In this document: positions 7,710 to 20,324 of the stretch, one piece after another
Position numbering within the stretch: the stretch's first letter is position 1
Layout of the letters: every line of letters starts with the position of its first letter
Assembly (NCBI GenBank): GCA_046260175.1
Contig: JBHEPS010000001.1
Span: 3,502 to 67,501, forward strand
Direction of reading: 5' to 3'
DNA: 64,000 nucleotides
Source of the DNA: Thermoanaerobaculia bacterium
Lineage (GTDB): Bacteria; Acidobacteriota; Thermoanaerobaculia; Gp7-AA8
Position numbers and translations under genes: made by a program
The notes under the pieces: generated by a model
The model's input: the letters and a program-made list of their open reading frames with translations, nothing else
Database searches by the model: none
What the model was told of the DNA's origin: nothing

Positions 7710-9875
7710 CTAATCGTCGCTGTCGAACACCCGCCGGATGCGGGCAAAAAAGCTCTCCACCCGCTGGCGGTTCTGGTCCACCTCGTGCGCCCAGCGGCGG
7801 AACTTGTCGAAGGTGATCGCCGCCGGCTCGTCGAACGACTCCTCGTCGAAGAGGATCTTCCGCGCGATCTGGCCGAGCAAACCTCGCGGGCACTCACGCG
7901 TGGGCGCGGTCCCGGATAGAAACACTTCGCGTCGGGGGCCGGGACATCCCTCGGCCCAGACCCAGCCCGATTGGGGATCGATGTTCCGGAAGACGACACC
8001 CTCCGGCGCGTCGATCTCCTTCCGGCTCGTCTTGATCCGGCTCATGTAGGTCCCCCAGATCGGGACCGCGGCCTCGGCTGACGAGAGCCGAAGCGGAGCT
8101 CCGCGATCGGTACCCACCCATACCGCCGTGACGAGGTCGGGGGTGTATCCGGCGAACCAGGCATCGCGGTAATCGCTCGTCGTTCCCGTTTTTCCCGCCG
8201 TGTGGCCGAGTCCGTATCGGCTCAGACGGCTCGCAGTGCCGCGTCGGACCACGCCCCGCAGCAGCGAGTGCATGACGTAGGCGACCGCCGGAGAAGTGAC
8301 CTCGATTTTCTGCGGCTCGTGACGGTAGAGCAATCTTCCGTTTCGGTCGTGCATCTCTGCGAGCAGGAAAGGATCGGTTCGCGTTCCAAGATTCGGAAAG
8401 ATCGTATAGGCACCCGCGAGCTCTCTCATGGACACTCCGGCCACTCCGAGGGAAAGCGCAGGAACCGCATCGATTTCGCCCTCGAAACCGGCTTCGCGTG
8501 CTCCCGCGACGACCTTGCGCAGACCGACCTCACGGCTGATCCGGATCGCAGGAATGTTCAATGACTTCTCGAATGCCTCGCGCAGGGTCACGCGGCCGCG
8601 AAACCGCTCGTCGTAGTTGTGCGGCTCCCATACGTCGTTGAGAGCGAGCTCGATGCGGAGGGGAGTGTCCTGAATGAGCGTCGCGGGAGTGAAGTTGCGG
8701 GATTCGATTGCCGTCAGATAGGCGAATGGCTTGAAGGCTGAGCCGGGCTGGCGCCTCATTGCCGACGTGCGGTCGAGGCTTCGCGAGCGGGGGTCGGCAC
8801 CGCTGACGAGAGCGCGTACGGCTCCAGTCTCGGGATCGATCGAGAGGAGCGCAGCCTGTACCCGGGCGTCGCCCGCCGCGTCGAGCCAATCGAAGCGCTG
8901 GCGAAGCCGGCGGGTTTCGATCCGGACGGCGCGCTCGGCTTCCTGCTGCATTGCGGGATCGATCGTAGCGACGATGCGCAGCCCGCCCTGGCGCAGAGCC
9001 TCTTCTCCGGCGCGTTCGGCGATCTCGGCGCGCAATGCGTCGAGATAATGCCGCCACGGCGTCTGCGGAAGCCCGCCTCCCGTGAACCGGGCCCGCGTCT
9101 TCAGCGCTTCGTCGTACTGCTCTTCATCGAGCCATCCTTCGTCCTTCATCCGCTCGAGGATGCGGTTCCGTCTCTCGCGGGCGAGCTCCGGGCGCTTCTC
9201 GGGCGTGTCGCGGTTCGGCGCCGGGACGATCGCGGCGATCAGCGCAACCTCGGCAGGGGTGAGTTTCTCGGGAGCCTTGTCGAAGAAGAGGCGGGAAGCC
9301 TCGTCCAGACCGCGGATCGAGTGGCCTCGCTGGTGTCCGAGGTAGACTTCGTTCAGGTAGGCCTCGAGGATCTCGTCCTTCGACATCCTCGCGTCGAGAA
9401 TGACCGCGAGGATCGCCTCGATCGCCTTGCGGCGGTACGTCCGCTCGCTGCTGAGAAGAAGCGACTTGACCAGCTGCTGGTCGATCGTGCTTCCACCCTG
9501 CCCGACCCGGCCCGAGCGAATATTCGAAACCAGAGCGCGCATGATTCCGATCGGATCGATGCCGGGATGGCGCCTGAAGCGAACGTCTTCCGCGGCGATG
9601 AATGCGTTCGGAACGTAGTCCGGGATCTGGTCGAGCAGCACCGGTTCGGTAGCCCGCCAGTCGCCACCGTAGAGCTCGAGAATCGGCTCTCCTTCGCCAT
9701 CGCCGTTCGCGAAGATCAGTGTCGGCGTCTTCCACTGCTGAGCGACGAGGACCTCGGACATCCGATAATTCAGCCATCCGAGATAGAGCGAGAAGAGCTG
9801 AATCGCGATCGCGATCGGCGTCACCGCGATGGCGAGCAGCGTATTTCGACTCATTCTCACGCGTGACATTTGCAC
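7710..9875 (-). CDS. mrcA: Bifunctional class A penicillin-binding protein (glycosyltransferase GT51 plus transpeptidase)
   Basis: N-terminal TM helix. GT51 motifs (EDVRFRRHPGIDPIG, RVGQGGSTIDQQLVK). Transpeptidase motifs SAFKPF (SxxK) and KTGTT. Confidence 0.85.
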   Translation of the reverse strand: MQMSRVRMSRNTLLAIAVTPIAIAIQLFSLYLGWLNYRMSEVLVAQQWKTPTLIFANGDGEGEPILELYGGDWRATEPVLLDQIPDYVPNAFIAAEDVRFRRHPGIDPIGIMRALVSNIRSGRVGQGGSTIDQQLVKSLLLSSERTYRRKAIEAILAVILDARMSKDEILEAYLNEVYLGHQRGHSIRGLDEASRLFFDKAPEKLTPAEVALIAAIVPAPNRDTPEKRPELARERRNRILERMKDEGWLDEEQYDEALKTRARFTGGGLPQTPWRHYLDALRAEIAERAGEEALRQGGLRIVATIDPAMQQEAERAVRIETRRLRQRFDWLDAAGDARVQAALLSIDPETGAVRALVSGADPRSRSLDRTSAMRRQPGSAFKPFAYLTAIESRNFTPATLIQDTPLRIELALNDVWEPHNYDERFRGRVTLREAFEKSLNIPAIRISREVGLRKVVAGAREAGFEGEIDAVPALSLGVAGVSMRELAGAYTIFPNLGTRTDPFLLAEMHDRNGRLLYRHEPQKIEVTSPAVAYVMHSLLRGVVRRGTASRLSRYGLGHTAGKTGTTSDYRDAWFAGYTPDLVTAVWVGTDRGAPLRLSSAEAAVPIWGTYMSRIKTSRKEIDAPEGVVFRNIDPQSGWVWAEGCPGPRREVFLSGTAPTRECPRGLLGQIARKILFDEESFDEPAAITFDKFRRWAHEVDQNRQRVESFFARIRRVFDSDD

Positions 9876-9966
9876 CGGCTTCGCCTACATTCTGATGGTT
9901 GCATCCTGTAAGCAACGTAACTGCCACGGGTCGAGATTGCAGGCGTCGAAAGGAGAGGGAAACCCT

Positions 9967-10437
9967 ATGGCCACCAAGAAGGCCTCCAAGAAGAAGCGTG
10001 CGGTGAAGAAAGCCGCCCCTGCGAAGGCCGGTAAGGCTTCGAGGAAATCCGCGAAAAGGAAACCCGCGAAAGCAGCATCGAAAAAGAAATCGACTGCTAA
10101 AAAGTCGGCGCGACCCGCCGCCAAAAAAGCCGGCGCGAGGCCGGCAAGAAAAACCGCTCGGAAGCCGGCCAGAAAGACCGCTCGGAAGCCGGCAGCCAGA
10201 AAGACCGCCAGAAAGCCGGCGGCGAAGAAGGCGGTTAAGAGACGCTCCACCGGGGCCTCGAAGCGCTCCACGAAGAAGGTCTCCGCCAGAAAGACCACCC
10301 GGCGAGCCGGAACGAAGTCACGCACAAAGAAGAAAACCGTGATTCAGAAGGCTCAGAGCGTAGTCGGTCGCGCGGTCGACGCCGTGAAGGAAGCCGCTTC
10401 CGACGTCAAGGATACGGTCACCTCGATCGTCACCTGA
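9967..10437 (+). CDS. Histone H1-like Lys/Ala-rich nucleoid protein
   Basis: Strong RBS (AAAGGAGAGGG) 8 nt upstream of the ATG. The 157-aa protein is about 40% Lys/Arg/Ala with ARKTARKP repeats and a C-terminal globular tail. A rho-independent terminator follows. The longer upstream extension in the six-frame track is not supported. Confidence 0.7.
   Translation: MATKKASKKKRAVKKAAPAKAGKASRKSAKRKPAKAASKKKSTAKKSARPAAKKAGARPARKTARKPARKTARKPAARKTARKPAAKKAVKRRSTGASKRSTKKVSARKTTRRAGTKSRTKKKTVIQKAQSVVGRAVDAVKEAASDVKDTVTSIVT
10144..10225. repeat. Tandem 24-nt coding repeat (AGAAAGACCGCTCGGAAGCCGGC-like, about 3.5 copies) inside the H1-like gene
   Basis: The direct repeats are seen in the sequence and encode the ARKTARKP octapeptide units. 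Confidence 0.6.
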
Positions 10438-10459: not shown

Positions 10460-10493
10460 AAACGTGAAAAGGCCCGGCTCGCAGCCGGGCCTT
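10460..10493 (+). terminator. Rho-independent terminator after the H1-like gene
   Basis: AAAAGGCCCGGCTCGCAGCCGGGCCTTTTCATG: a GC-rich 10-bp stem followed by a T tract. Confidence 0.75.
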
Positions 10494-10564: not shown

Positions 10565-11638
10565 TCACTGGACCGTGGCGAAGAAGTTCTGAACGCGTTT
10601 CGGGAAGTAATTGGAATCGAGTCTTCCGTTGCCGTGCTGACGAGCTTTCCGGAAAGCGTCGATCGCCGCCTGCTCTTCCCGGTCGTTGGTCTGTCCGCTC
10701 AGGTACCAGTTGTAGTAATGGGACGCGCCGAGGAATGCCCAGAGCAGCGAGTTCTCGCGCTCTTCGTTCGCGAGACGGTCGAAGGCCTGAATCGATCGGG
10801 TGAAGTCTCCCGAAAAGTACGCCTCGACGGCTGCCCGGACGCGCTGCCTCTTCTGCGAAAGCGCATCCTCGGTTGCCGCAGTTGCGACTTTCGCCGTCGT
10901 CGGCTCCTTGCTCGCCTTCTGCTGGGCGATCTGGTTCTTCGTGATCGCGAGATTGAGGGTCGACAGGGCGCGATTGGCCGTCTTCTCAACCGCGATCCAG
11001 TCCGAAGCCGTGTCGGCCTGTGCCGAGTCCTGCTGAGCCGAGAGCATCAGGCGCTCCCCGTCGGCGAACTCCGGTTGAGAGCCGGCCCTTGCCCGGCGAG
11101 CCTTTTCGTGGGCATCGCGCGCGGCGGTAAGGGCCTCGCGCGCCCGCGATCGTGCGGGGGCGAGATTCGGATCGATCTGGGGTTGCTGGGTGACGGTGGT
11201 CGTAGGAGTGACCGGTTGCTGAATAGGCGGCTGCTGAGCGACCGTCGTCGTGGGGACCTCGGGCTGACTCTGCCTGGCGAGTTGCATCTCCGCGCGTCCG
11301 AGGATTGAATCAGGCGCGCCGAGCTTCACGGATCCCTGACCCGTCGCTTTGCGAAGGTCCTCGATCCCGGCTTCGAGATTCCCGAGCTCGACGTTCGCCA
11401 GCCCTCGGTAATAGTAGGGGTGGTAGGCGATGAACCCGGTGCCCGTCGTCCTCTCGCGGGCGTTCTCCTTCGGCCGCGCCTTGATGGCCGCCGACATCTT
11501 CTGAACCACGACCGACCACTGCCCGCTCTGAGCCGCTTTCAGCCCTGCCTCGTAGTCGTCGAGCCAGTCCGCCTCCGCCGGCGCGGCGGCGAGCGTGAGG
11601 AGCATCGCAGCGACGATCAGGATGCGGACACGAATCAT
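10565..11638 (-). CDS. Secreted hypothetical protein with TPR-like segments; last gene of the kinase operon
   Basis: Signal peptide (MIRVRILIVAAMLLTLAAAPAEA). A Gln/Pro/Thr-rich linker. TPR-like helices (YYYRGLANVELGNLEAGIEDL; WAFLGASHYYNWYLSG). It overlaps the upstream kinase stop by 4 nt. Confidence 0.5.
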   Translation of the reverse strand: MIRVRILIVAAMLLTLAAAPAEADWLDDYEAGLKAAQSGQWSVVVQKMSAAIKARPKENARERTTGTGFIAYHPYYYRGLANVELGNLEAGIEDLRKATGQGSVKLGAPDSILGRAEMQLARQSQPEVPTTTVAQQPPIQQPVTPTTTVTQQPQIDPNLAPARSRAREALTAARDAHEKARRARAGSQPEFADGERLMLSAQQDSAQADTASDWIAVEKTANRALSTLNLAITKNQIAQQKASKEPTTAKVATAATEDALSQKRQRVRAAVEAYFSGDFTRSIQAFDRLANEERENSLLWAFLGASHYYNWYLSGQTNDREEQAAIDAFRKARQHGNGRLDSNYFPKRVQNFFATVQ

Positions 11639-13398
11639 TGTCTGAGAATGTCCTCGACGACCTGATCGAGGTCGACCGGGGAACTGATGTCCGCATGGTA
11701 CGTCGCGGGAGCCCCGCTATCCACTTGAATCCGACGCGTGACGGGCCGCCCGGCGCGGTCGCGGAGGGTCACCTCGTAGGTTCCGGCAATCAAATTCGAA
11801 ACACGAACGGGAACGATTCTGTCGTCTTCGGACAGTTGCACCGGCTGCTCGGACTCGAGATGCTGGAGGCCCTGGATCTCGAGACCAGGGCTTCCCGTCA
11901 GCAGAAGGACGCTCGTGCGGTCGCCGGGAGCGGTCGAGGTGAGTGGAGTCACTCCCGTGATCGAGGCCATCGAGGTTCCGGTGGCCGAGTCGGTCGATGT
12001 CCCGCTGCGGCTGAACATGACCCCTCCGATGATTACGAGGACCAGTGCGGCCGCCGCTGCCCCGATCCAGATCGCGGGCTTTCGCCGGCCGGCCGCGGGT
12101 GAGGTGATCCTCTCGAAGACGGTCGCCGCGGCGGAGCTGCCCAGCTTCGGTTCCACCCGTGTCGGGGCGGCCGAAGCGCCGAGGGAATCGATCATCGTCG
12201 GGACGGCCGCGGCGTCGCCGGAGCCGAAGGCGGTGGGCGCACCGCCGGCCGTTCGCTCGACCACGGTTGGAGCCGCGCCACTCTCGATCACCGTGGGAGC
12301 GGCGTCGGCAGAAGTGACAGAAGTCTGGCGGGTCGATCCCGTGCCGGCGAACGGCTTTCCGTCCACGAGGGTTGGAGTTGCCGACAGGGTGATCATCCGC
12401 TCGCCGAGCCCGTACTTCGACTCCGGCTGAATCGAGGCGCGGACCGACTGGAGGTCCTCGATCAGGGCCGTCGTGTCGTGATGACGCGACTCGCGATCCT
12501 TCTCGAGCACCTTGAGAACGATGCTCTCGAGGGAGGCCGGCACCTTGACGTCCGGGTTGATCTCGGAAAACGAAAGCGGCTTCTCGGTGGCGTGCTTGAG
12601 GATGTATCCGTGAGGGTTGGTGGCGAGGAATGGCGTTCGGCCCGCCAGCATCTCGTAGAGGACGATGCCGAACGAGTAGAGGTCGCTGCGAGCGTCGAGA
12701 TGCTCCCCCTCCTTGATGAATCCGGCCTGCTCGGGAGAGGCGTACTTGAGCTTTCCGAGGAACATGCCGGTCTGTGTCAGCCCCTGGCCCCCCTCGCCTT
12801 CGGAAAGCTGTTTCGCAATCCCGAAGTCGATCACTTTGACGAGCAGCTTTCCCCTCTGGTCCTGGGAAAGCATGATGTTCTCGGGAGAGATGTCGCGATG
12901 AATGATCCCCATCTCGTGGAGGGCGCCGAGGCCGCCGAGCGCCTGGATGGCGATCTCCACCGCCAGGCGCGGGGGGACGGGACCGTTCGACGCGATCCAC
13001 TTCTGGATGTTCACTCCATCGATGAACTCCCAGACCATGTAGTAGGAACCGTCGTCGAGAGTCGAGAAGTCATAGAGCATCGCCAGGCTGCGATGCTTGA
13101 CCGTCGTCGCCAGCCGGGCCTCGTAGAGGAATCGCTGCAACGCCTGCTCGTCGGCGGCGATGTTCGCGCGCATGATCTTGATCACGCGCTGCTCGCCCAG
13201 GTGAATGTGGCGGACCTTGAAGATCTCGCCCATTCCACCGACTCCGAGCCGGTCCAGGATCTGGTACTTGCCGTCGATCAGCCGGGTCGAGTACGTGCGC
13301 TGAAAGTCAGTGACTTTCTCGCTGCACGAAGGACACGCCTCCGCACGCGGATCGAGTTGTGTTTTGCAGCGCAGGCAGATCAGTTCTGTGGGGGCCAT
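11635..13398 (-). CDS. Ser/Thr protein kinase: N-terminal zinc ribbon, kinase domain, Ala/Pro/Thr-rich linker, TM helix and extracellular C-terminal domain
   Basis: CxxC...CxxC ribbon (CLRCKTQLDPRAEACPSC). Kinase motifs GxGxxG (LGVGGMGE), HRDISPENIML, DFGIAK and SPEQ. TM helix AIWIGAAAAALVLVIIGGVMF. Confidence 0.85.
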   Translation of the reverse strand: MAPTELICLRCKTQLDPRAEACPSCSEKVTDFQRTYSTRLIDGKYQILDRLGVGGMGEIFKVRHIHLGEQRVIKIMRANIAADEQALQRFLYEARLATTVKHRSLAMLYDFSTLDDGSYYMVWEFIDGVNIQKWIASNGPVPPRLAVEIAIQALGGLGALHEMGIIHRDISPENIMLSQDQRGKLLVKVIDFGIAKQLSEGEGGQGLTQTGMFLGKLKYASPEQAGFIKEGEHLDARSDLYSFGIVLYEMLAGRTPFLATNPHGYILKHATEKPLSFSEINPDVKVPASLESIVLKVLEKDRESRHHDTTALIEDLQSVRASIQPESKYGLGERMITLSATPTLVDGKPFAGTGSTRQTSVTSADAAPTVIESGAAPTVVERTAGGAPTAFGSGDAAAVPTMIDSLGASAAPTRVEPKLGSSAAATVFERITSPAAGRRKPAIWIGAAAAALVLVIIGGVMFSRSGTSTDSATGTSMASITGVTPLTSTAPGDRTSVLLLTGSPGLEIQGLQHLESEQPVQLSEDDRIVPVRVSNLIAGTYEVTLRDRAGRPVTRRIQVDSGAPATYHADISSPVDLDQVVEDILRQ

Positions 13399-14633
13399 GG
13401 GTCGGTTCCTTCGTCCCGTCTGCGAGATCGAATCGTATAGCTGCAGGCGGGATCGGCGCCGAAGCGGACGATGTCCCCGGGCTGCAGTTTCGCGCTTTCG
13501 ACGCGAGCATTGTTCACATACGTCCCGTTCGCAGATTTGAGATCTTCAATGAGAAACGATGCGGGGGTAACGGTAATTCTCGCATGCCGCCGCGACACGG
13601 CGGGGTGAGGGACCACGATGGCGCAGGTACGGTCCCGGCCGATGAGAGCGCTTTCCCCGCTCACCGCGTGTTTCCCGCTGACCCCTTCGAGCAGCCACTG
13701 CAGGTCGGGAGCACCGCCGGAAGTCCGCACCGTGGCGTCGTCCGCGGCCACGGGAGACGGGGAAGCGGCAAAAATCCGCTGTTTGTAACTCTCGAGAGCG
13801 TCGCAGAGGTCCTGGGCGGTCTGGTAGCGCTTCTTCGGGTCGGGAGCCATCCCCTCGAGCACAATCGCGTCGAGAGAAGAATCGAGGGCCGGCCGAAGCG
13901 CGCTGGGCGGAGCCTTTCCCCCCTTGTAGATCGCCTCGATGAGCTTCGGAAGCGACCGCTGCGTGAATGGCAGTGAGCCCGTCAGCATCTCGTAGAGCAC
14001 GACCGAAGTCGAATAGATGTCGCACGACGCGCCGGCCTCTTTCGGGTCGCGAATCTGCTCGGGTGACATGTAGTGAGGCGTGCCGAGAAGGAAACCCGCC
14101 CTCGTCAGCACGGTCGCCGCCACCGCAGTCGCACCCGCATCTTCCTTGATCTTGGCGATGCCGAAGTCGGTCACCTTCAGTCCGCCCTCTTTCGACTTGA
14201 TGAGATTGGCGGGCTTGATGTCCCGGTGGATGATGCCGCGCCCGTGGGCGTATGTGAGCGCTTCGAGCAGGCACTGCGTGATCGACAGGGCGTCACCTAC
14301 GCTCAACGCGCCCCGTTGAGAGATCAGCTTGTCGACCGGATGGCCGTCCGCGAACTCCATCACGAGGACTGCCCCGGTATCCCTCTCGATGAATTCGTAG
14401 AAACGCGTGATGTACCGGTGGCGGAGCTGCGCGAGAATCCGCGCTTCCTTCACGAAGCGCTTGCGCGCCGTCACCTCGCCCGCAAGCTCGGCAGACATCA
14501 CCTTGAGGACGACCAGGTGACCTTCCGGCAGCAGGGGGGTCGCGCTCAGCGTGCGCCCGATGTAGACGTGACTCATGCCCCCTTCCGACAGGTCGCGCTC
14601 GACGCGGTAATTGCCGACCACCGTGCCGATCAT
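13380..14633 (-). CDS. Ser/Thr protein kinase with a C-terminal FHA domain (cytoplasmic)
   Basis: HRDIKPANLI, DFGIAK and SPEQ motifs. C-terminal FHA signature (ALIGRDRTCAIVV...VSRRHARI...SANGTYVNN). Confidence 0.85.
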   Translation of the reverse strand: MIGTVVGNYRVERDLSEGGMSHVYIGRTLSATPLLPEGHLVVLKVMSAELAGEVTARKRFVKEARILAQLRHRYITRFYEFIERDTGAVLVMEFADGHPVDKLISQRGALSVGDALSITQCLLEALTYAHGRGIIHRDIKPANLIKSKEGGLKVTDFGIAKIKEDAGATAVAATVLTRAGFLLGTPHYMSPEQIRDPKEAGASCDIYSTSVVLYEMLTGSLPFTQRSLPKLIEAIYKGGKAPPSALRPALDSSLDAIVLEGMAPDPKKRYQTAQDLCDALESYKQRIFAASPSPVAADDATVRTSGGAPDLQWLLEGVSGKHAVSGESALIGRDRTCAIVVPHPAVSRRHARITVTPASFLIEDLKSANGTYVNNARVESAKLQPGDIVRFGADPACSYTIRSRRRDEGTDPWPPQN

Positions 14634-15223
14634 GGGACGAGCCTCGGGTCGGTCCAGGAGAGGTCGAGACGGATGAAGACCAGACGTTGAGAGCCGACGC
14701 GGATGATGTCGTGATGCTCGAGATCGCAGCGCGGCTCGATCTCGGCATCGTTCACATAGGTCCCGTTGGTCGAGTTGCGATCCATCAGGATGAATCGTTG
14801 CTCCTCCGGCCTGTAGATCAGGTCGGCGTGATGGTTCGAGGTCTGATCGTCCGCGATTGGAACGTCCGAGCTCGGATCGCGACCGATCGTGTTCTTTCCG
14901 ATCCGGATCGTGAACGCGTCGCCCCGAATCGATGTGGAGATTCCGACCAGCCAGCCCACGACGAGCCCGGATCGCGTCGGCTCGAGGCCGAACGACGCCT
15001 TCGGCACTGCCACCGTCCGGCTGGGAGGCTCGGTCGCCGGCGCGCTCGAGGGCTCAGGACGCCTGGCCGTCCCCACGGGGCCATGCGGATTCGTCGAGCC
15101 TGCCCCGCGCGGACGAACGACCGGGATCTGACCCGTCGACACCTCAGGCGGGCAGAATGGGCAGAGATCCCAGCTTGCGTCGATCCGGTGCCCGCGAGGG
15201 CAGACTTTTTCTCCCACTTTCAT
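14630..15223 (-). CDS. Zinc-ribbon plus FHA domain protein (only the C-terminal 197 codons of the 492-aa six-frame ORF are coding)
   Basis: MKVGEKVCPRGHRIDASWDLCPFCP ribbon, a Pro-rich linker, and an FHA domain (TIRIGKNTIGRD...HHADLIY...STNGTYVND). The ATGA junction with the upstream gene fixes the start at 15223. Confidence 0.7.
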   Translation of the reverse strand: MKVGEKVCPRGHRIDASWDLCPFCPPEVSTGQIPVVRPRGAGSTNPHGPVGTARRPEPSSAPATEPPSRTVAVPKASFGLEPTRSGLVVGWLVGISTSIRGDAFTIRIGKNTIGRDPSSDVPIADDQTSNHHADLIYRPEEQRFILMDRNSTNGTYVNDAEIEPRCDLEHHDIIRVGSQRLVFIRLDLSWTDPRLVP

Positions 15224-16833
15224 CGGTGGAACGCCACCGCAATGGCGTTCCGGCCTCCAAAATTGATGATGTCGCCGTCGCGGAGCTCGTGATGCGCAAC
15301 GCGCTTTCCTCCCACCCAGGTGCCGTTGGACGAGTTCCGATCCACCAATAATACTCTCCCGCCGCTGCGAAGCACCTCGGCGTGCAGGCGCGAGATCCTC
15401 GGGTCCGGGATCACGACCTCGCACTCGTTCCGTTCCCTTCCGATCCGGATTCCGGAACCGGCAAGACCGATCCTCTCGCCCGCCCGAGGTCCGTTGAGGA
15501 AAGTGAGCTTCCCCGTCAAAGAGCTCTCCCCGGTACCCTGGATGGGCTCTGGTTCCGCCGCGGGTGAGCGCACGACCCGGAGCGGCCTCCGGCCGCGGAG
15601 AGCGGCGACGAGCAGGGTAACGACGATCAGGAGAAAAACAGCGGAAGCGACCGTGACGAGGGTCGTCTCGCGCCACCAGGGGATGGAGCCGAGTCTCCCG
15701 CGGACGTCGCGCCGCAGGCGCGAGACATCCGGGTTGCCTGAAAAAGCCTCTTCGGCTCGGTCGAGCTGCGCTTGAGCCTCTCGCCAGCGGCCTCCCTCGA
15801 TCGCGTCGAGAGCGGCGCGGTAGCGGGGCGAGAAGCTGCCGGTCTCCTCGAGCCTCAGATCGAGGTTTCTGAGGCGAGCGTTGGCGACATTGATCGGCAC
15901 GATGAAACGGATGGAGTCGGCGCTGGCGTGACCCCAGGTCACCAGGCCGATCGCGCGCCCCTGGTGATCGGTGACCGGCCCTCCGGACGTTCCCGGGTAG
16001 AGGGGGATATCGGTCTGAAAGACCGGGACGTTCGCGATGTTCTTGCGAACCGCGGTGATGCTGCCACGGTTCACGGTCGCCTCGAGGTCCGTTTCCTGCG
16101 AAAGCCACCCACCGATGGTTTCGTCCGTGCTGCTCGCGACCGATGGGTAACCGAATACCAGAACGGCATCCTGAATGCGCACTTTGTCGGAATCACCCAG
16201 AACCACGGTGGGCAGGTCGTGAGCGGCGATCCGGAGGATAGCGACGTCGTCCCCATGATCCCGAAGCGAGGGGGAGAAATCGAGGATCGAGAAAGGGACC
16301 GTCAGTCCGTTGGAGAGCTCTATCTCGCGCCAGGTGCGGATCTGGCGAAGCGAGCCGGCCTGGGCCAGCATCACGATCAGGGGCTCGAGGGCGGAGGTGC
16401 GCTCGAGCGTACGAAGGGAATCGATCGGGTAACGAGCCAGGAGCGCGGCTGCCGCGCCGTTGCGAGCGAGCTCGCGCTGAACGGCGGCAGGATCGCGAAC
16501 CAGGCTGATGACGTGCCCGCTGGTGAGGATGATCCCGTCCGGATGCACGGCGAAGCCCGATCCTGACCCGCCGGCGCCGGTATCGACCTCGACAGGACGG
16601 GTCGGCCACTCCTGCGGCTCGGCGAGGCCCCGTCGGACGATCCGGTCGTGCGCCGCCCCGGCGGCAGCCGCGTCGATGACGAAACGGGCGGTCGCGTAGG
16701 CGCGAACGCGGACCACCGCCGGTCGAACCTCGTAAACCGTGCGCTGGACGGGAGCGAGCAGCGGCTCATGATCCCGGCAGCCGATGAGAAGCGGAATCGC
16801 GATCAACAGTGCAGCGCGCACCGGGGAGGTCAT
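15220..16833 (-). CDS. Lipoprotein trypsin-like serine protease (periplasmic), one TM helix, and a cytoplasmic FHA domain
   Basis: Lipobox LLIGC. Catalytic His (LTSGHVI), Asp (DVAILRI) and Ser (GTSGGPV). TM helix TLVTVASAVFLLIVVTLLVAAL. C-terminal FHA (IRIGRERNECEVVI...SRLHAEV...SSNGTWVGG). Confidence 0.75.
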   Translation of the reverse strand: MTSPVRAALLIAIPLLIGCRDHEPLLAPVQRTVYEVRPAVVRVRAYATARFVIDAAAAGAAHDRIVRRGLAEPQEWPTRPVEVDTGAGGSGSGFAVHPDGIILTSGHVISLVRDPAAVQRELARNGAAAALLARYPIDSLRTLERTSALEPLIVMLAQAGSLRQIRTWREIELSNGLTVPFSILDFSPSLRDHGDDVAILRIAAHDLPTVVLGDSDKVRIQDAVLVFGYPSVASSTDETIGGWLSQETDLEATVNRGSITAVRKNIANVPVFQTDIPLYPGTSGGPVTDHQGRAIGLVTWGHASADSIRFIVPINVANARLRNLDLRLEETGSFSPRYRAALDAIEGGRWREAQAQLDRAEEAFSGNPDVSRLRRDVRGRLGSIPWWRETTLVTVASAVFLLIVVTLLVAALRGRRPLRVVRSPAAEPEPIQGTGESSLTGKLTFLNGPRAGERIGLAGSGIRIGRERNECEVVIPDPRISRLHAEVLRSGGRVLLVDRNSSNGTWVGGKRVAHHELRDGDIINFGGRNAIAVAFHR

Positions 16834-16840
16834 GGACGTC

Positions 16841-17743
16841 TCAGAACCCGATCCCTTGGCCGAAGTGGCGCCACAACCAGATCAGTGCGCCGGCGAAACC
16901 GAGCCCCACCAGCAGCCAGAGCCAGCCGAGCCCTTTTCCGGAGCTCGATGTGGGCTGGGCTGTCTCGATCCGGCAGACGACGGCGGTGACGTTATCGGGG
17001 GCGCCAGCGGCATACGCCAACTCGACGCAGCGGTCGACCGCCTCTTGAGGTGAGAGCTCGAGAGCTTCGCGGATCGAGTCGATTCCGACGAACCCGTGAA
17101 GCCCGTCCGAGCAGAGCAGATAGGCATCGCCCGGAACGATCTCCAGATCGCTGCCGCTGTCGACCTCGATGTCGGGTGTGACGCCGAGGGAACGCTGGAG
17201 CACATTTCTTCGTGGATGAACGGCGGCTTCCTCATCGGTGAGCAGCCCTTCCCGAACCATGCTCGCGACGACGGAGTGATCCTGGGTCAGCTGTTCCAGC
17301 AGCCCCTGGCGCAACCGGTAAATCCGCGAATCGCCGACATGAGTGAACCAGGCCCGCGACTCCCGCGCGTAGAGGACGGAAACGGTCGTGCCCATCCCCC
17401 GGAGCTCGAGATTGTCCTGCGCGTGGTCGAACACCGCCTTGTTGGCCCCCGCGATTGCGGCTGACAACGCCGGGCCGGGATCAACCAGCGGGTCTGCCGA
17501 AAAACGCTCCTGGACGGTCGTCGCGGCCAGGCGGGAGGCCGTGGCACCCCCGCGGTGGCCTCCCATCCCATCGGCGACGATCATGAGCGTTCCGCCTCCG
17601 GGGCTATCCGGGCCGCTCGAGACGAGACTGAAGTCCTGATTCTCGGTTCGAACCTTGCCGACCTCGCTCCGGTGGGCGACCTCGAGACGCAGTGATCCCG
17701 CGCCTTTGCGACCCGAAGGGGTGGTTTGGCTGTCGCTCTGCAT
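16841..17743 (-). CDS. PP2C-family Ser/Thr phosphatase with a C-terminal membrane anchor
   Basis: PP2C motifs (RTENQDFSL; VADGMGGH; DSRIYRL; LLCSDGLHG). C-terminal TM segment WLWLLVGLGFAGALIWLW. Confidence 0.85.
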   Translation of the reverse strand: MQSDSQTTPSGRKGAGSLRLEVAHRSEVGKVRTENQDFSLVSSGPDSPGGGTLMIVADGMGGHRGGATASRLAATTVQERFSADPLVDPGPALSAAIAGANKAVFDHAQDNLELRGMGTTVSVLYARESRAWFTHVGDSRIYRLRQGLLEQLTQDHSVVASMVREGLLTDEEAAVHPRRNVLQRSLGVTPDIEVDSGSDLEIVPGDAYLLCSDGLHGFVGIDSIREALELSPQEAVDRCVELAYAAGAPDNVTAVVCRIETAQPTSSSGKGLGWLWLLVGLGFAGALIWLWRHFGQGIGF

Positions 17744-17787
17744 CAGGTTAGCCCGAGGATCGTCTGCTGGATTCGAATGGAGATGCG

Positions 17788-17874
17788 CGGATTATACAGG
17801 AGCCGGGCTCCGGGCCTGAGGTTCCCTGAAGGCTTTCACGGACTCTGAGTCACCGGGCGAATGGATATAATCCG
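17788..17874. promoter_or_regulatory. Divergent promoter region with a perfect 9-bp inverted pair CGGATTATA (17788-17796) / TATAATCCG (17866-17874). Each gives an outward-facing consensus TATAAT -10 box
   Basis: TATAAT consensus elements are rare in this roughly 68% GC sequence. The minus-facing box sits about 45 nt upstream of the PP2C ATG. The plus-facing box sits 14 nt upstream of the second ATG (17885) of the cyclase gene. Confidence 0.45.
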
Positions 17875-19549
17875 GAAACCGGCCATGGAACAGTTCCAGA
17901 TCCACTACGTCGATCTCGGCGCCTCGAGAATGTATGACCTCCGGGAAAGCCCCGTGAGCGTCGGGAGGATCGAGGGAAACGAGATCGTTCTGAACCACCC
18001 ATCGGTTTCGAGACGACACGCGCGATTCGAGTTGCGTGGAGAGGAGTGGTGGATCGTCGACCTCAACTCCACGAACGGAGTGAAAATCAACGGATCGTCG
18101 GCGCCCGAAGCAGGCCTCAAATCGGGGGATCGCCTTCTGATCGGGTCCGTAGAGGCAGAGATCAGGTCCATTCCGGCGATCGGCTTCTCGGAAGAAAGCC
18201 CCTTCGACAACGTCTCGGGAACGGTCATTCGCCGCATCTCTGACTTCAATTCGGAATTCGGTCTCGAAGCGACTCCCCAGCCGGATCGGCAGGCGCCGGG
18301 GAAAGCGGACACCCGGGAAAAGATCTTCGCCGTCCTGGTCCAGGTGGCGAAGGTGCTGCTCGAATCGGACGATCTGAGCCAGGTGCTCCGCACCGTCATG
18401 GATCTGATCTTCAAGTACCTCCCGGTAGAGCGCGGGCTGCTCGTCCTGTTCGACGAGGAAGGGAATCCCATCCCGCGTACGACCAAGTTCAGCGAGGGGT
18501 CGGACGAGGAGATTCCGATCTCCCGGACGATTCTCAAGATGGTCGCGGAGCAGCAGGTCTCCCTGCTGACTTCGAATGCGCTCGAGGACGCCCGGCTTCT
18601 CGGAGGGAAGTCGATCGCCATCCACGGCATCCGTTCGGCGATGTGCGTGCCGCTCTGGAACCGGGGCCGGGTCATCGGGGCCGTGCAGGTCGACTCGCCG
18701 ATTCACATCGGCAGATTCACGGAAGACGACCTCGACCTGCTCACCGCGCTCGCGAACTTCGCAGCAGTCGCCATCGAGCGTGCGCAGCTTTCCGAGAAGA
18801 TCGAGGAAGAGCGAAAGATCCGAGGAAAGCTGGAGCGATATCACTCGCCGGCGGTCGTGGACGAGATCGTTCGCCGCGCCGGCGCCGCCGAAGAAAAGGA
18901 AGTTCGAAACGCCGAGCTGTCCATTCTCTTCGCCGATATCTGCGGGTTTACTTCGATCTCCGAAACAAAAAAGCCGGAAGAGGTCTCGGAGTTCCTCGCC
19001 AATTTCTTCAGCTGCGCGGTCGAGGCGATCTTCACATGGGGAGGAACGCTCGACAAATTCATCGGCGATGCAGTGATGGCATTCTTCGGTGCCCCTCTGG
19101 CACAGGAAGATCACGCGGCGCGCGCCGTCCGCGCCGGCTTGATGATGCGGGAGCTCGTCGACGAATGGAACGAAGAGCGCCAGAGGGAAGGGCTTCCTCC
19201 CGTTCAGATCCGGGTCGGCATCAATTCCGGCCCGGCGGTCGTCGGCAATGTCGGCACCGAGAAGCGCGTCGATTACACGGTCCTCGGCACATCGGTCAAC
19301 ATCGCGTCCCGCCTCGAGAGCGGCGTCGCCAAGCCGGGCCAGGTCGTCGTGTCGCAGAACACCTTCGACCGCCTCGCCACCAAATTCGAGTCCGTTCCGC
19401 TCGGCGAGTTTCCGCTCAAGGGTCTGCAGCAGCGCATGCCCGTCCACCAGATCGTTCGTGAGCTCGACGCGGCCACCAGCACCCTCCCCACGCGGAGCAC
19501 CCTGACCAATGAAAAGACGACACTCGGTCCTGACGATCGCGGGGAGTGA
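17861..19549 (+). CDS. FHA-GAF-class III adenylate/guanylate cyclase (the start may instead be 17885, MEQFQ...)
   Basis: N-terminal FHA (VSVGRIEGNEIVL...SRRHARF...STNGVKING). A GAF-like middle region. Cyclase motifs FADICGFTSISE and FIGDAVMAFFGAP. Confidence 0.8.
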   Translation: MDIIRKPAMEQFQIHYVDLGASRMYDLRESPVSVGRIEGNEIVLNHPSVSRRHARFELRGEEWWIVDLNSTNGVKINGSSAPEAGLKSGDRLLIGSVEAEIRSIPAIGFSEESPFDNVSGTVIRRISDFNSEFGLEATPQPDRQAPGKADTREKIFAVLVQVAKVLLESDDLSQVLRTVMDLIFKYLPVERGLLVLFDEEGNPIPRTTKFSEGSDEEIPISRTILKMVAEQQVSLLTSNALEDARLLGGKSIAIHGIRSAMCVPLWNRGRVIGAVQVDSPIHIGRFTEDDLDLLTALANFAAVAIERAQLSEKIEEERKIRGKLERYHSPAVVDEIVRRAGAAEEKEVRNAELSILFADICGFTSISETKKPEEVSEFLANFFSCAVEAIFTWGGTLDKFIGDAVMAFFGAPLAQEDHAARAVRAGLMMRELVDEWNEERQREGLPPVQIRVGINSGPAVVGNVGTEKRVDYTVLGTSVNIASRLESGVAKPGQVVVSQNTFDRLATKFESVPLGEFPLKGLQQRMPVHQIVRELDAATSTLPTRSTLTNEKTTLGPDDRGE

Positions 19550-20324
19550 CTCCGGAGGAGGAGCCGGGATTCAGGCCGACCTGAAAACCTTCGCCTGGTT
19601 CGGAATCCACGGATCGAGCGCGATCACCGCCGTTACTGCCCAGAACAGCCGCGAGGTGACGGCGGTGTTTCCGCTGCCCGACGAAATCGTCGAGGCTCAG
19701 ATCGACGCCGTGATGAGCGACCTCGGCCCGTCGGTCGTCAAGATCGGAATGCTGGGAACGACCCAGCTCGTGACGACCGTCGCGCGCAAACTGCGCGAGT
19801 GGAGGCCTCCCCAGATCGTGCTCGATCCCGTGATGATCGCGTCGAGCGGGGCGCGGCTGCTGACCGAGGATGCCGTCGCCGCGCTTCGTACCGAGCTCCT
19901 GCCGCTGGCGACGGTACTCACGCCCAACTGGCCCGAGGCGGCCGAGCTCATCGGCGAAGATCCGGGAGAAACCGCCGACCTCGCTCATTTCGCGAGCCGG
20001 TTGTCGGCGCTCGGCTCGTTCGCGATCGTTCTGAAGGGTGGGCACCTTCCGGGATCACCCGTGGTGGATACGCTCGTCATCGGGGAAGGGATCTGGGAGT
20101 ATCGGCACGAACGCATCGCCGGGGCGGAAGGGCATGGTACCGGTTGTGCTCTTGCATCGGCCGTGGCGGCCAATCTCGCTCTCGGGAAAGACCTTCCAGA
20201 AGCCGTAGCCGCCGCGACGGACTTCGTTCATCAGGTGCTTCTCGACCGATACTCAACCGGCTCCTCCAGGGAAAACTACCTCGGCATTCTCGCGGAACCA
20301 TCAGGAGCTGCCGGACGTCGATAG
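19509..20324 (+). CDS. thiD: Hydroxymethylpyrimidine/phosphomethylpyrimidine kinase
   Basis: VLTIAGSDSGGGAGIQADLKTF and the rest of the ThiD fold. It overlaps the cyclase gene by 41 nt. Confidence 0.85.
   Translation: MKRRHSVLTIAGSDSGGGAGIQADLKTFAWFGIHGSSAITAVTAQNSREVTAVFPLPDEIVEAQIDAVMSDLGPSVVKIGMLGTTQLVTTVARKLREWRPPQIVLDPVMIASSGARLLTEDAVAALRTELLPLATVLTPNWPEAAELIGEDPGETADLAHFASRLSALGSFAIVLKGGHLPGSPVVDTLVIGEGIWEYRHERIAGAEGHGTGCALASAVAANLALGKDLPEAVAAATDFVHQVLLDRYSTGSSRENYLGILAEPSGAAGRR

Follow-up and report, generated by a model that had tools for sequence, protein, structure and literature searches.

A conserved phospho-threonine signalling operon with a protease-TM-FHA protein, two Hanks kinases and a PP2C phosphatase in Thermoanaerobaculia (Acidobacteriota)

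The 64-kb window analysed here (the whole stretch of DNA, taken from a Thermoanaerobaculia MAG of the Acidobacteriota) carries a signalling gene cluster that is kept at a fixed core-genome position across the class. Six genes form a single co-oriented, tightly packed phospho-Ser/Thr signalling operon, divergent from a gene encoding an FHA-GAF-cyclase (Table 1). The analysis shows which domains the genes encode and what topology is predicted for their products, that catalytic and phospho-Thr-binding residues are intact, that the genes are linked over deep divergence and that a threonine motif is enriched. We lean, with confidence slightly better than even, towards a phospho-threonine operon that would link a receptor kinase, FHA docking, a periplasmic protease and a reset by the PP2C phosphatase.

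Table 1. Positions of the operon genes and of the neighbouring features in the window.
Feature	Position	Strand	Remark and basis
Class A penicillin-binding protein, PBP1A family	7710–9875	-	Pfam, NCBIfam; separate transcription unit
Secreted TPR-like protein	10565–11638	-	last operon gene; SPase I signal, AlphaFold
Receptor Hanks kinase (Zn-ribbon-STK-TM-ectodomain; ZnSTK)	11635–13398	-	Pfam Pkinase
T-φ-φ-[E/D] repeat array, receptor-kinase juxtamembrane linker	12109–12381	-	motif count
STK-FHA, cytoplasmic Hanks Ser/Thr kinase with C-terminal FHA	13380–14633	-	Pfam
Zn-knuckle-FHA adaptor, 197 aa (ZnFHA)	14630–15223	-	Pfam FHA
Protease-TM-FHA lipoprotein	15220–16833	-	second operon gene; Pfam Trypsin_2, FHA
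PP2C-type Ser/Thr phosphatase	16841–17743	-	first operon gene; Pfam
Putative divergent promoter region, two opposed TATAAT boxes	17744–17884	.	conservation and consensus
FHA-GAF-class IIIb adenylyl cyclase (predicted)	17885–19549	+	Pfam; ORF could formally begin at 17861
thiD	19509–20324	+	overlaps cyclase ORF

The original prediction had placed four FHA proteins, two kinases, a PP2C, a trypsin-like protease and an FHA-GAF-class III cyclase in this region, and Pfam recovered each of these domains at the claimed gene: PP2C_2 (1e-13) and PP2C (8e-8) in the phosphatase, Trypsin_2 (5e-22) and FHA (7e-20) in the protease-TM-FHA protein, FHA (1e-17) in the adaptor, Pkinase (2e-44) and FHA (3e-22) in STK-FHA, Pkinase (9e-43) in the receptor kinase, and FHA (2.5e-17), GAF (3e-19) and Guanylate_cyc (2.5e-30) in the cyclase. 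The overlap of the cyclase gene with thiD was also found, over 41 nt of the two ORFs. The six operon genes had been described as joined by ATGA or 4-nt overlaps, which is true of three of the five junctions (protease/ZnFHA, ZnFHA/STK-FHA and ZnSTK/TPR), but a 7-nt gap separates the PP2C and protease genes and the STK-FHA and ZnSTK genes overlap by 19 nt. Neither a GC anomaly at the operon nor mobile-element genes were found. The operon is best explained as a chromosomal unit for phospho-threonine signalling that Thermoanaerobaculia inherit vertically.

The conservation of the locus was followed in 81 species-level relatives, each gene being counted where the contig reaches it, and the six-gene operon is complete in 100% of those in which the contig permits the check. 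The PP2C gene precedes the protease gene in 71/71 loci, the Zn-knuckle-FHA gene adjoins it in 74/74, and the genes for STK-FHA, the receptor kinase and the TPR-like protein are present in 70/70, 61/61 and 56/56 loci, respectively. The clustering in related genomes on which the original prediction depended is thereby confirmed, for the six genes in all testable relatives; the cyclase gene is directly divergent from the operon in 51/64 class loci. In five others it lies about 9 kb away, behind exopolysaccharide and GGDEF-EAL genes that take up about 8.5 kb, and in eight none is found within 10 kb. Within the class, synteny extends over about 25 kb of the surroundings, housekeeping genes included, so the adjacency of the cyclase is weak evidence for its membership in the circuit, which would rest mainly on its own FHA domain.

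Nine loci from more distant lineages, in which the protease-TM-FHA protein shares 27–34% identity and an unchanged architecture, allow the core to be separated from its additions. The protease-TM-FHA gene lies inside a Hanks kinase cluster in all nine, and the order protease-FHA / Zn-knuckle-FHA / PP2C / receptor kinase is kept in seven. Since the flanks of these loci are unrelated, such linkage at this identity goes well past neighbourhood inertia. Because the same loci have no cyclase nearby and no PBP next to the module, the deep core is the protease with the kinase module, and the cyclase, the second kinase (the STK-FHA gene is in none of the nine) and the TPR-like protein are class-specific additions. 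A core common to Bryobacteraceae-type and other lineages would thus comprise a receptor Hanks kinase, a PP2C, a Zn-knuckle-FHA adaptor and an HtrA-like protease-TM-FHA protein, to which Thermoanaerobaculia would have added a cytoplasmic kinase with FHA, a secreted TPR-like protein and a divergent FHA-GAF adenylyl cyclase.

The protease-TM-FHA protein consists of a lipoprotein signal peptide, an HtrA-like serine protease, TPR-like helices, a TM helix (about aa 388–413) and an FHA domain. In a 16-sequence alignment, Cys19 of the lipobox (LIGC), the triad His107/Asp196/Ser283 and the FHA residues Gly465-Arg466, Ser481, His484 and Asn503 are invariant. It is predicted to be an inner-membrane protein with a periplasmic protease and a cytoplasmic FHA domain; the AlphaFold model has a pLDDT of about 90 for the periplasmic part and below 50 for the FHA part. 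The best Foldseek matches are HtrA1, DegQ, AlgW and MucD (TM about 0.8 on target length, about 20% identity). As in the HtrA-family proteases DegS, AlgW, DegP, DegQ and HtrA1 and the membrane-tethered MarP of M. tuberculosis, an S1C chymotrypsin fold and a catalytic triad go together with a (predicted) membrane-tethered, periplasm-facing position. The protein differs from these in a helical segment inserted between His and Asp (aa 106–159), in TPR-like helices, a C-terminal TM helix and an N-terminal lipobox, and in having no PDZ domain, either in Pfam or in the model; the TM helix and cytoplasmic FHA domain stand where the PDZ regulator of an HtrA protein would be. Its NCBIfam scores are far under the cut-offs (HhoA/HtrA 86 against 450, MarP 25 against 250). 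At E<=1e-5, 597 homologs were found, and all 120 that were listed carry both Trypsin_2 and FHA. A membrane-anchored HtrA-like protease is also encoded in a signalling operon of B. subtilis, walRK-yycHIJ-yyxA(htrC), as the last gene after extracytoplasmic kinase regulators, but walRK is a histidine kinase with a response regulator and not a Hanks kinase with FHA proteins, and that protease has no phospho-reader domain.

Both kinases keep their catalytic motifs: HRDIKPANL, DFGIAK and SPE in 71 orthologs of STK-FHA, and HRD, DFG and the LTQTG activation loop, together with the Zn-ribbon cysteines, in 62 orthologs of the receptor kinase. The latter is composed of an N-terminal CxxC...CxxC Zn-ribbon, the kinase domain, a Thr-rich juxtamembrane linker, a TM helix (aa 441–462) and an ectodomain of about 95 aa, predicted periplasmic and tentatively PEGA-like, the PEGA/CarboxypepD_reg matches in 9/10 orthologs being all sub-threshold. 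Outside a series of T-φ-φ-[E/D] repeats the linker is poorly conserved. These repeats (PTLVD, PTVIE, PTVVE, PTMID, PTRVE and TVFE in the window kinase) number 257 in 59 orthologs, that is 4.4 per protein and 4–7 per linker, whereas composition-preserving shuffles gave 7.8 +/- 2.7 in total with a maximum of 16, in a test that counts related orthologs as independent, although the motif positions cannot be aligned. The repeats are candidate phospho-Thr docking sites for the FHA proteins. The kinases of the nine distant loci have 0–1 such motif and the array is confined to the lineage with four FHA proteins; since the core module of other lineages does without it, it cannot be a general docking mechanism.

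The linker of the Zn-knuckle-FHA adaptor holds a single conserved threonine, Thr70, in the motif R-T-V. The knuckle C-x-x-G-H...C-P-[YF]-C and the motif [KR]-T-[VILM]-φ occur together in 72/74 class orthologs and in 5/5 Bryobacteraceae-type proteins, in which Ser replaces the canonical phosphate-binding Arg; the threonine motif is also present in L092, and L091 keeps the knuckle but has A-T-V-V instead. The threonine of [KR]-T-[VI] is conserved across lineages though the surrounding linker varies, and could make the adaptor a self-inhibiting switch by analogy with GarA and OdhI of Actinobacteria, which are likewise small, with the FHA domain at the C-terminal end and one conserved Thr in a flexible N-terminal part. 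GarA is recruited by PknB (PMC6213207). The FHA domains studied here match GarA and OdhI structures and models at the domain level, but the adaptor has an N-terminal Zn-knuckle and not the ETTS motif, a metabolic-enzyme partner is not evident, and the OdhI score is 40 bits against a cut-off of 200.

The phosphatase ends in a hydrophobic helix, a predicted membrane tether, and keeps the metal-binding motifs ENQD, ADGMGGH, GMGTT, VGDSR, CSDGL and DNVT in 73 orthologs; it scores 228.4 bits against Stp1/IreP of NCBIfam (cut-off 230). The TPR-like protein has a signal peptide ending at AEA|DW and, in Pfam, a sub-threshold TPR_9 match only. Its AlphaFold model (pLDDT 87) shows two TPR-like helical modules, in the order N-terminal module with β-hairpin, disordered P/Q/T linker (125–158), long helical hairpin and C-terminal module, and only generic TPR matches were obtained against PDB folds. 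Thermoanaerobaculia is named in every source that states the organism among its 76 homologs, and the protein is not homologous to the products of the genes that follow the kinase gene in two distant loci used for comparison.

No protein of the block is more conserved than the cyclase (68–93% identity), whose catalytic Asp, Asp, Asn and Arg are kept in 52 orthologs. CyaB of P. aeruginosa (3r5g, 5e-35) is its best solved relative and has the nearest catalytic domain, which agrees in the Lys/Thr specificity pair as well as in the metal and transition-state residues; the Lys of DKFIGD and the Thr of DYTVLG align with Glu and Gly in 2w01. Judged from its sequence, the protein is a class IIIb adenylyl cyclase with a Lys/Thr pair and an intact active site. 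The earlier assignment as a cNMP cyclase was right as to class III but left the nucleotide general, where the pair marks an adenylyl cyclase. GAF-regulated and FHA-linked cyclases exist, such as Anabaena CyaB1 with GAF domains and Synechocystis Cya1 with an FHA domain; no account of an FHA-GAF-cyclase head-to-head with a kinase/phosphatase operon was found in the literature. The start of the gene is probably at 17885, with a spacer of about 141 bp to the operon, because ortholog conservation begins at Met9 of the longer ORF and because a TATAAT box, kept in 58/58 relatives and mostly 10–14 nt 5' of the conserved ATG, falls within the eight codons from 17861 onward. A second TATAAT is found upstream of PP2C in 56/58 relatives. 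The two divergent -10 boxes coincide with the arms of a single perfect 9-nt inverted repeat, CGGATTATA/TATAATCCG, at 17788–17796 on the operon side and 17866–17874 on the cyclase side, and the intergenic region appears to be a divergent promoter. Of the 117-bp palindromic promoter region first proposed, the divergence and the repeat remain, but the palindrome consists of the two TATAAT boxes and the spacer is longer.

It is known that Hanks kinases recruit FHA proteins via phospho-Thr, as in PknB-GarA and PpkA-Fha1, and that kinase and PP2C genes are co-transcribed (PMC6213207). In the mechanism that we propose, the steps of which (activation, autophosphorylation, docking, coupling and reset) we infer, the receptor kinase would be activated via its small periplasmic domain, possibly jointly with the co-translated TPR-like protein, and would autophosphorylate its activation loop and the 4–7 T-φ-φ-E juxtamembrane repeats. 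The phospho-threonines would then offer the four FHA domains an array of docking sites, recruiting STK-FHA for signal amplification, the Zn-knuckle-FHA adaptor, the adenylyl cyclase for a cAMP output, and the membrane protease, so that periplasmic proteolysis would follow the cytoplasmic phosphorylation state. The protease could be coupled by being clustered beside the ectodomain of the kinase and beside the TPR-like protein, or else by a conformational change relayed via the TM helix, and the membrane-tethered PP2C would reset the system. Protease and cyclase had both been predicted as outputs; the protease belongs to the deep core, but the cyclase is absent from the distant loci and displaced or missing in 13/64 class loci. 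The circuit had also been called trans-envelope, a term that is too wide for a system predicted to span the inner membrane and not the whole envelope.

Protease-FHA signalling may run inside-out or outside-in. In an outside-in stress sensor, which we regard as unlikely, the HtrA-like domain would respond in the manner of DegS to proteins of the periplasm, either misfolded or specific ones, the protease being the input and not the output, and the cytoplasmic FHA domain would inform the kinases and the phosphatase, for example by binding and modulating a phosphorylated kinase. HtrA/DegS/AlgW-like proteases, whose fold is found here, are established envelope-stress sensors, and the constancy of protease-FHA and Zn-knuckle-FHA while kinase ectodomains vary by lineage fits a fixed sensor with changing partners. 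However, the protein lacks the PDZ domain, the sensing domain of DegS and AlgW, the receptor kinases carry ectodomains of their own, and an FHA domain reads phosphorylation, so that the protein carrying it acts after a kinase in all cases characterised (PMC6213207). A comparably low probability is given to cell-wall growth control, in which the operon would be an acidobacterial counterpart of fhaA-fhaB-pstP-rodA-pbpA-pknA-pknB of M. tuberculosis, its main target being peptidoglycan synthesis by the neighbouring class A PBP, and protease and TPR-like protein acting on PBP1A or its regulators. The parts are indeed parallel to PstP, FhaA/FhaB and PknA/PknB: two Hanks kinases, a membrane-anchored PP2C, two small or adaptor FHA proteins, a receptor kinase with TQT-type activation loop and Thr-rich juxtamembrane linker, and a peptidoglycan synthase gene nearby. 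This PBP1A gene (Transgly 7e-58, Transpeptidase 3e-26 in Pfam; PBP_1a_fam 533.6 against 508.75, the sole family match above a curated NCBIfam cut-off) follows the TPR gene in 47/52 class loci, including loci with a rearranged cyclase side. The best NCBIfam likenesses, to FhaB/FipA for FHA, Stp1/IreP for PP2C and PknB-type kinases, as those to PstP and FhaA, are all below the cut-offs. Against this reading, PBP1A is a separate transcription unit, with an opposed (+ strand) Lys/Ala-rich ORF and a terminator-like hairpin (10476–10491) in between; no SEDS or class B PBP gene and no PASTA ectodomain was found in the operon; isocitrate/isopropylmalate dehydrogenase family and APH genes are equally syntenic in the class without a plausible link; and a PBP or other cell-wall gene is beside the module in 0/9 distant loci. 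The operon further differs from the M. tuberculosis cluster in lacking the FhaA (DUF3662) architecture, in that a periplasmic protease and a kinase each carry an FHA domain, and in the additional FHA-cyclase.

That the cyclase is merely a neighbour, belonging to another pathway and placed by the conserved chromosomal context, is doubtful, although somewhat easier to entertain. The class-wide synteny, its absence from the distant loci and its separation or loss in 13 class loci are in favour of this view, but an intact FHA domain needs a phospho-Thr partner, the operon's two Hanks kinases are the only ones found among the window ORFs scanned, and in 51/64 loci both units share one compact, putative divergent promoter region, the -10 boxes of which are paired and conserved. 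A T6SS-type secretion gate, or an anti-phage or conflict system made of kinase, protease and cyclase, is highly improbable. In the T6SS of P. aeruginosa the transmembrane Hanks kinase PpkA, the PP2C PppA and the FHA protein Fha1 act as a post-translational switch by threonine phosphorylation (PMC6213207), and the likeness to them stated in the original prediction holds at the domain level, with no defining feature of the pathway found. The resemblance extends to the gene for a periplasmic accessory protein beside the kinase gene. In P. aeruginosa, this protein is TagR, encoded with the kinase. Here, in contrast, there is no vWA ectodomain, the apparent effector is a protease, and the FHA proteins score 23–35 bits against the TagH (VI_FHA) cut-off of 120. 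As predicted, no T6SS genes, and likewise no T3SS or other secretion-machine genes, are among the ORFs scanned in the window, nor were such genes found in related loci. The claimed absence of a pilus does not strictly hold for the window, since pilin-like N_methyl ORFs lie at 2477–3414, but in relatives no such ORFs were found in the 10 kb around the operon. PADLOC gave domain-level matches (kinases to PD-T4-6, cyclase to PycC, protease to RT-Protease), but to generic catalytic domains whose system partners are absent, and the fixed core-genome position, without GC anomaly or mobile-element genes, also argues against such a system.

No paper on the operon was found in the literature, in agreement with the prediction of an undescribed circuit. 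The cluster is real, strongly conserved and unstudied in soil Acidobacteria, and is probably a new link from intracellular phosphorylation to protein cleavage outside the cell.

Between 10565 and 19549, six co-oriented minus-strand genes are accompanied by one divergent plus-strand gene, and Pfam verified every domain that the original prediction had named there, namely four FHA, two Pkinase, PP2C, Trypsin, GAF, the cyclase and the neighbouring thiD. The six genes had been described as overlapping by 4 nt. Their tight packing held, with ATGA overlaps at the protease/Zn-knuckle-FHA, Zn-knuckle-FHA/STK-FHA and receptor kinase/TPR junctions, but a 7-nt gap separates the PP2C and protease genes and the STK-FHA and receptor kinase genes overlap by 19 nt. 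GC content is flat over the window, and the genes around the operon are housekeeping genes (Pfam scans of the window ORFs). The four FHA domains (Pfam E-values from 1e-17 to 3e-22) all keep the GR, S(R/N)(R/L/H)H and NG(T/V) phospho-Thr-binding loops and are, judged by these loops, of the canonical phospho-threonine-binding type. The predicted topology places the protease, the kinase ectodomain and the TPR-like protein in the periplasm, and the kinase domains, FHA domains, PP2C and cyclase in the cytoplasm.

Genes of the operon, the divergent cyclase gene and thiD (window coordinates)
Gene	Position	Strand	Domains and features
PP2C	16841-17743	-	PP2C_2 1e-13 (Pfam); first operon gene; C-terminal hydrophobic helix
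Protease-TM-FHA	15220-16833	-	Trypsin_2 5e-22 and FHA (Pfam)
Zn-knuckle-FHA	14630-15223	-	FHA (Pfam)
STK-FHA	13380-14633	-	Pkinase 2e-44 and FHA (Pfam)
Zn-ribbon-STK-TM-ectodomain receptor kinase	11635-13398	-	Pkinase 9e-43 (Pfam)
Secreted TPR-like protein	10565-11638	-	SPase I signal peptide; last operon gene
FHA-GAF-cyclase	17885 (probable start) to 19549	+	GAF 3e-19, Guanylate_cyc 2.5e-30 (Pfam)
thiD	19509-20324	+	Phos_pyr_kin 5e-84 (Pfam)

Homologs of the protease-TM-FHA protein are numerous, 597 being found at E<=1e-5 among 90%-identity clusters and 1,571 in a second such search. The 120 listed of the 597 are all full length with both Trypsin_2 and FHA, and the organism-bearing names among the listed homologs are all Thermoanaerobaculia or Acidobacteriota. 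A one-genome-per-species scan gave 80 loci, all of the Thermoanaerobaculia/Acidobacteriota group, and with one further distinct locus the resulting 81 were scored by tblastn with 19 window proteins, the denominators being the loci where the contig reaches. The clustering of the genes was upheld in these relatives: the operon is intact wherever the contig reaches, with genes for PP2C in 71/71, the Zn-knuckle-FHA protein in 74/74, STK-FHA in 70/70, the receptor kinase in 61/61 and the TPR-like protein in 56/56 loci. The TPR-like protein of the window is 100% identical to NCBI protein ABR524_00075 (Thermoanaerobaculia MAG), which marks the window as chromosomal DNA of an acidobacterium. The pairing with the cyclase gene stood in part, being directly divergent in 51 of 64 class loci, but the cyclase gene lies ~9 kb off in five (L031, L051, L053, L060, L064), where ~8.5 kb are inserted between it and PP2C, and eight loci have none within 10 kb of the operon. 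The one insert scanned (L031, about 300-9000) carries exopolysaccharide and GGDEF-EAL genes, among them genes for a cellulose-synthase-like GT2, a GH26, a TPR protein and a dCache-HAMP-PAS-GGDEF-EAL protein. At locus L009, genes for a CHASE2 histidine kinase and for a sigma-54 regulator stand where the cyclase gene would otherwise be. An overlapping thiD gene downstream of the cyclase gene is confined to the closer relatives L001, L004, L005 and L007 and to L015 and L075; for most of the class, the direct successor of the cyclase is LepB (signal peptidase S26).

When 1.8 billion representatives of 50%-identity clusters were searched exhaustively with HMMER, over 100 proteins reached E<=1e-30, and many of these matched over both the protease and the FHA parts with 27-35% identity. 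Gene context was compared for nine loci of distant lineages, five Bryobacteraceae-type (L084-L088) and four from other metagenome lineages (L089-L092), and in all nine the protease-TM-FHA gene lies within a Hanks kinase cluster. The order protease-FHA, FHA protein of 165-172 aa, PP2C, membrane kinase is found in seven; L090 has FHA-FHA-PP2C-STK-protease, and at L089 the order is STK-protease-STK, a Zn-ribbon-FHA gene being 5 kb off. Since this deep linkage persists despite flanking genes that differ at each of the nine loci, there is strong evidence from gene order that the protease-TM-FHA protein, the small FHA protein, PP2C and the receptor kinase form one functional unit. No cyclase, PBP, STK-FHA or TPR-like homolog was found at the nine loci. 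Their gene content thus shows the cyclase, the second kinase and the TPR-like protein as Thermoanaerobaculia-specific additions, within the range of lineages compared. The distant-locus kinases have 33-40% identity to both window kinases, so that orthology to either is not separable. At L087, a serpin (protease inhibitor) gene (6770-7942, plus strand) is located directly upstream of the protease-TM-FHA gene and co-oriented with it.

In a 16-sequence alignment of the protease-TM-FHA protein, the lipobox Cys19, the triad H107/D196/S283 and the FHA residues G465-R466, S481, H484 and N503 are invariant. AlphaFold models the periplasmic part with high confidence (about 90) and the FHA part poorly. 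Foldseek matched HtrA1, DegQ, AlgW and MucD (E about 1e-13, TM about 0.8 on target length), and the protease fold as modelled is HtrA-like. The chymotrypsin fold and His-Asp-Ser triad are common to the HtrA/DegP (S1C) family, which however carries one or two C-terminal PDZ domains; Pfam found no PDZ match in the window protein, and the model has instead TPR-like helices (aa 334-383), a TM helix and the FHA domain, plus a helical insertion at aa 106-159. The NCBIfam HtrA models all score far under their cut-offs on this protein.

Both kinases keep the catalytic motifs VIKIM/VLKVM, HRDI(S/K)P(E/A)N, DFGIAK and SPE (62 and 71 orthologs), and by these motifs are Hanks-type kinases, predicted to be active. 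The receptor-kinase ectodomain (~95 aa), which gives only sub-threshold PEGA/CarboxypepD_reg matches, is tentatively PEGA-like. The juxtamembrane linker of this kinase is poorly conserved in alignment and, in the window protein, carries the repeats PTLVD, PTVIE, PTVVE, PTMID, PTRVE and TVFE. The linkers of 59 orthologs contain 257 T-φ-φ-[E/D] motifs, for 7.8 +/- 2.7 expected and a maximum of 16 in composition-preserving linker shuffles, the orthologs not being independent of one another. We interpret the repeats as putative autophosphorylation and FHA-docking sites. Since the kinases of the nine distant loci have Pro-rich linkers with 0-1 motif each, the array is restricted to the lineage with four FHA domains.

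The small FHA protein has a conserved knuckle, K-x-C-x-x-G-H...S-W-x-x-C-P-[YF]-C, and within its variable linker a single conserved threonine in the context [KR]-T-[VILM]-φ (Thr70 in the window), kept in 72/74 class orthologs, 5/5 Bryobacteraceae-type proteins and L092. This threonine is reminiscent of the phospho-acceptor in GarA/OdhI, a site that folds back onto the FHA domain of the same protein, and could act similarly. The phosphate-binding Gly-Arg is replaced by Gly-Ser in the Bryobacteraceae-type proteins (L084-L088), whereas the Thermoanaerobaculia proteins keep it. The metal-binding motifs of PP2C are conserved, and its score against NCBIfam Stp1/IreP is 1.6 bits under the cut-off. 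In the AlphaFold model of the TPR-like protein (pLDDT 87), a disordered linker and a helical hairpin connect two TPR-like modules; for this model Foldseek against the PDB returned only generic TPR matches (E>=1e-3, TM about 0.2) and no specific structural relative.

Of all proteins in the block, the cyclase is conserved best, with 68-93% identity across the class versus 44-84% for the protease. Class IIIb cyclases have two metal-binding Asp, a Lys with a Thr (Asp in class IIIa), and transition-state Asn and Arg; guanylyl cyclases have Glu and Cys/Gly/Ser at the substrate-defining positions. The nearest solved relative is CyaB 3r5g (E 5e-35), and in the alignment to it the cyclase shows FADI, DKFIGD, DYTVLG and VNIASR, conserved in 52 orthologs. 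The specificity pair is the Lys of DKFIGD and the Thr of DYTVLG, unlike the Glu and Gly of 2w01 (which we take to be the guanylyl cyclase Cya2), and on this alignment the protein is therefore classed as a class IIIb adenylyl cyclase. An FHA domain is probably present in Synechocystis Cya1 as well.

The 117 bp between the divergent genes had been described as a palindromic promoter region. The sole inverted repeat of the spacer is a perfect 9-mer, CGGATTATA/TATAATCCG, at 17788-17796 and 17866-17874, the second arm lying inside the cyclase ORF as first delimited. A TATAAT box occurs 8-19 nt (mostly 10-14) upstream of the conserved cyclase ATG in 58/58 related loci and a second one faces the PP2C gene in 56/58. 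Because the boxes are kept on both sides in the relatives, the repeat is read as a pair of divergent -10 elements, with putative promoter activity, and not as one palindrome. A sigma-70 promoter scan of the region detected neither conserved box since no -35 element matched. Conservation of the cyclase orthologs begins at Met9 and a TATAAT box stands just upstream of the conserved ATG, so 17885 is the most probable start of the cyclase, which would leave only a very short leader; the short spacing in all 58 loci suggests a leaderless or near-leaderless transcript.

Several other genes around the operon deserve mention. The original prediction had stated that no pilus genes are present, which is not strictly true of the window: two small ORFs with an N-terminal methylation motif (type IV pilin/pseudopilin) lie at 2477-3414 (+), ~7 kb from the operon, followed by a small ORF (3368-3787, +) without a family match. 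At related loci, no such pilin-like ORFs were found in the 10 kb around the operon. The operon and the PBP1A gene are separated by an ORF (9829-10437, +; probable start 9964) that is rich in Lys and Ala, resembles histone H1 and has no Pfam or NCBIfam match; it is convergent with the TPR gene, and a terminator-like hairpin follows it at 10476-10491. The position of this ORF holds a 140-aa gene on the same relative strand in L001 and a gene on the opposite relative strand in L002 and L003. A GGDEF-EAL protein (4930-6969, +) beside PBP1A is kept in closer relatives, a HAMP-GGDEF protein lies further off (60112-61542, -), and c-di-GMP genes recur around the locus in relatives. A tightly packed run of co-oriented genes (26829-30039, -) encodes an ECF sigma factor, a HEAT-repeat protein and a DUF4097 protein, DUF4097 being also near the module in L002 and L085. 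The window further encodes a 1225-aa protein with matrixin, fn3 and PKD domains (35045-38722, -) and a 1064-aa multi-TPR protein (42738-45932, -).

The part list invites comparison with known systems. PpkA, PppA and Fha1 of type VI secretion are encoded in or next to a cluster of TssA-M, Hcp and VgrG, a placement that the operon does not share: as the original prediction had noted, no T6SS family is found by Pfam among the ~50 ORFs scanned across the 64-kb window, nor in the gene tables of related loci. PpkA also has a periplasmic von Willebrand A domain, for which the window receptor kinase gives no match, and the TagH/Fha1 model TIGR03354 (VI_FHA) scores the window FHA proteins at 22.9-34.9 bits against a cut-off of 120.25. 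Gating of a T6SS was consequently rejected. An anti-phage defence or conflict system was rejected as well: PADLOC matched generic catalytic domains only (PD-T4-6 for the kinase, PycC for the cyclase, RT-Protease; none for the Zn-knuckle-FHA and TPR-like proteins) with no partner genes, and the operon sits at a fixed core-genome position. These two readings together are very improbable. More can be said for cell-wall control, that is, a system like the actinobacterial PknB/PstP/FhaA/FhaB cluster aimed at the neighbouring PBP1A (7710-9875, -), the only protein to pass an NCBIfam cut-off where no operon protein does. The part lists are parallel, including a PP2C with a C-terminal hydrophobic helix in one co-oriented operon with kinases and FHA proteins, and a class A PBP adjoins the operon downstream in 47/52 class loci. 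However, PBP1A is a separate transcription unit, and a PBP is beside the module in none of the nine distant loci. The actinobacterial cluster contains SEDS (RodA/FtsW) and class B PBP genes, both missing from the operon, and its receptor kinase has PASTA repeats, which the window kinase lacks, PknB_PASTA_kin reaching 272 bits over the kinase domain only (cut-off 450). We therefore consider cell-wall control unlikely.

Signalling could also run outside-in, the HtrA-like domain acting as a sensor, but the missing PDZ domain and the action of FHA domains as readers speak against it, and we hold it improbable. That the cyclase is a mere neighbour of the operon we hold less likely than not; synteny in the class extends to LepB, NirDL, DUF309, an isocitrate/isopropylmalate dehydrogenase-family gene and APH, so adjacency there says little about function.

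A more novel reading, less probable than not, is that HtrA-like-TM-FHA would be a phospho-Thr-gated periplasmic protease, in which cytoplasmic Ser/Thr phosphorylation read by the FHA domain would set where or whether proteolysis occurs across the inner membrane, and that in Thermoanaerobaculia the receptor-kinase pThr array may join protease, second kinase, adaptor and adenylyl cyclase in one membrane signalosome. Beyond the domains, predicted topology, intact active sites, deep gene linkage and motif enrichment observed here, the most likely course of events would be the following: the receptor kinase, activated from the periplasm, would phosphorylate its own linker, on which the FHA-bearing proteins would dock; the second kinase could then amplify the signal, the Zn-knuckle-FHA adaptor switch state, the cyclase make cAMP and the protease be positioned or activated on the periplasmic side, until PP2C resets the system. 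The nearest candidates for protease substrates are the co-encoded TPR-like protein and the kinase ectodomain.

No account of such a system was found in the literature on FHA with trypsin/HtrA, FHA-GAF-cyclase or Thermoanaerobaculia FHA proteins, and public annotations read "trypsin-like peptidase domain-containing protein", "serine protease Do" or "hypothetical protein". A 2008 survey merely lists an FHA-FHA-trypsin architecture in Bacteroides (PMC2605481). There is precedent, reviewed in PMC6213207, for recruitment of FHA proteins by kinases and for co-transcription of kinase and PP2C genes. The original observation is thus confirmed and its interpretation borne out only in part: the system is a Hanks kinase/PP2C/FHA module set apart by a transmembrane HtrA-like protease bearing a phospho-Thr reader and, in this class, also by a putative docking array of several sites and by an FHA-GAF adenylyl cyclase.

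Signalling modules of Hanks kinase, PP2C and FHA proteins are familiar, and to our knowledge their outputs in Gram-negative environmental bacteria are mostly undescribed. The parts here are ordinary and the interest lies in their connection, the mechanism being inferred from sequence alone. The architecture is widespread, unstudied and mechanistically suggestive: a very widespread family joins a phospho-Thr reader to a periplasmic protease and is always encoded with kinases. The T-φ-φ-E array offers a simple peptide-level handle on FHA docking, and the FHA-GAF adenylyl cyclase a possible link from phospho-Thr to cAMP. A phospho-Thr-gated periplasmic protease would, if true, amount to inside-out signalling of a kind that has not been described for bacterial Hanks kinases, and the family provides a testable candidate for control of envelope proteolysis by Ser/Thr phosphorylation, or for proteolysis reporting to kinases, in a dominant soil phylum.
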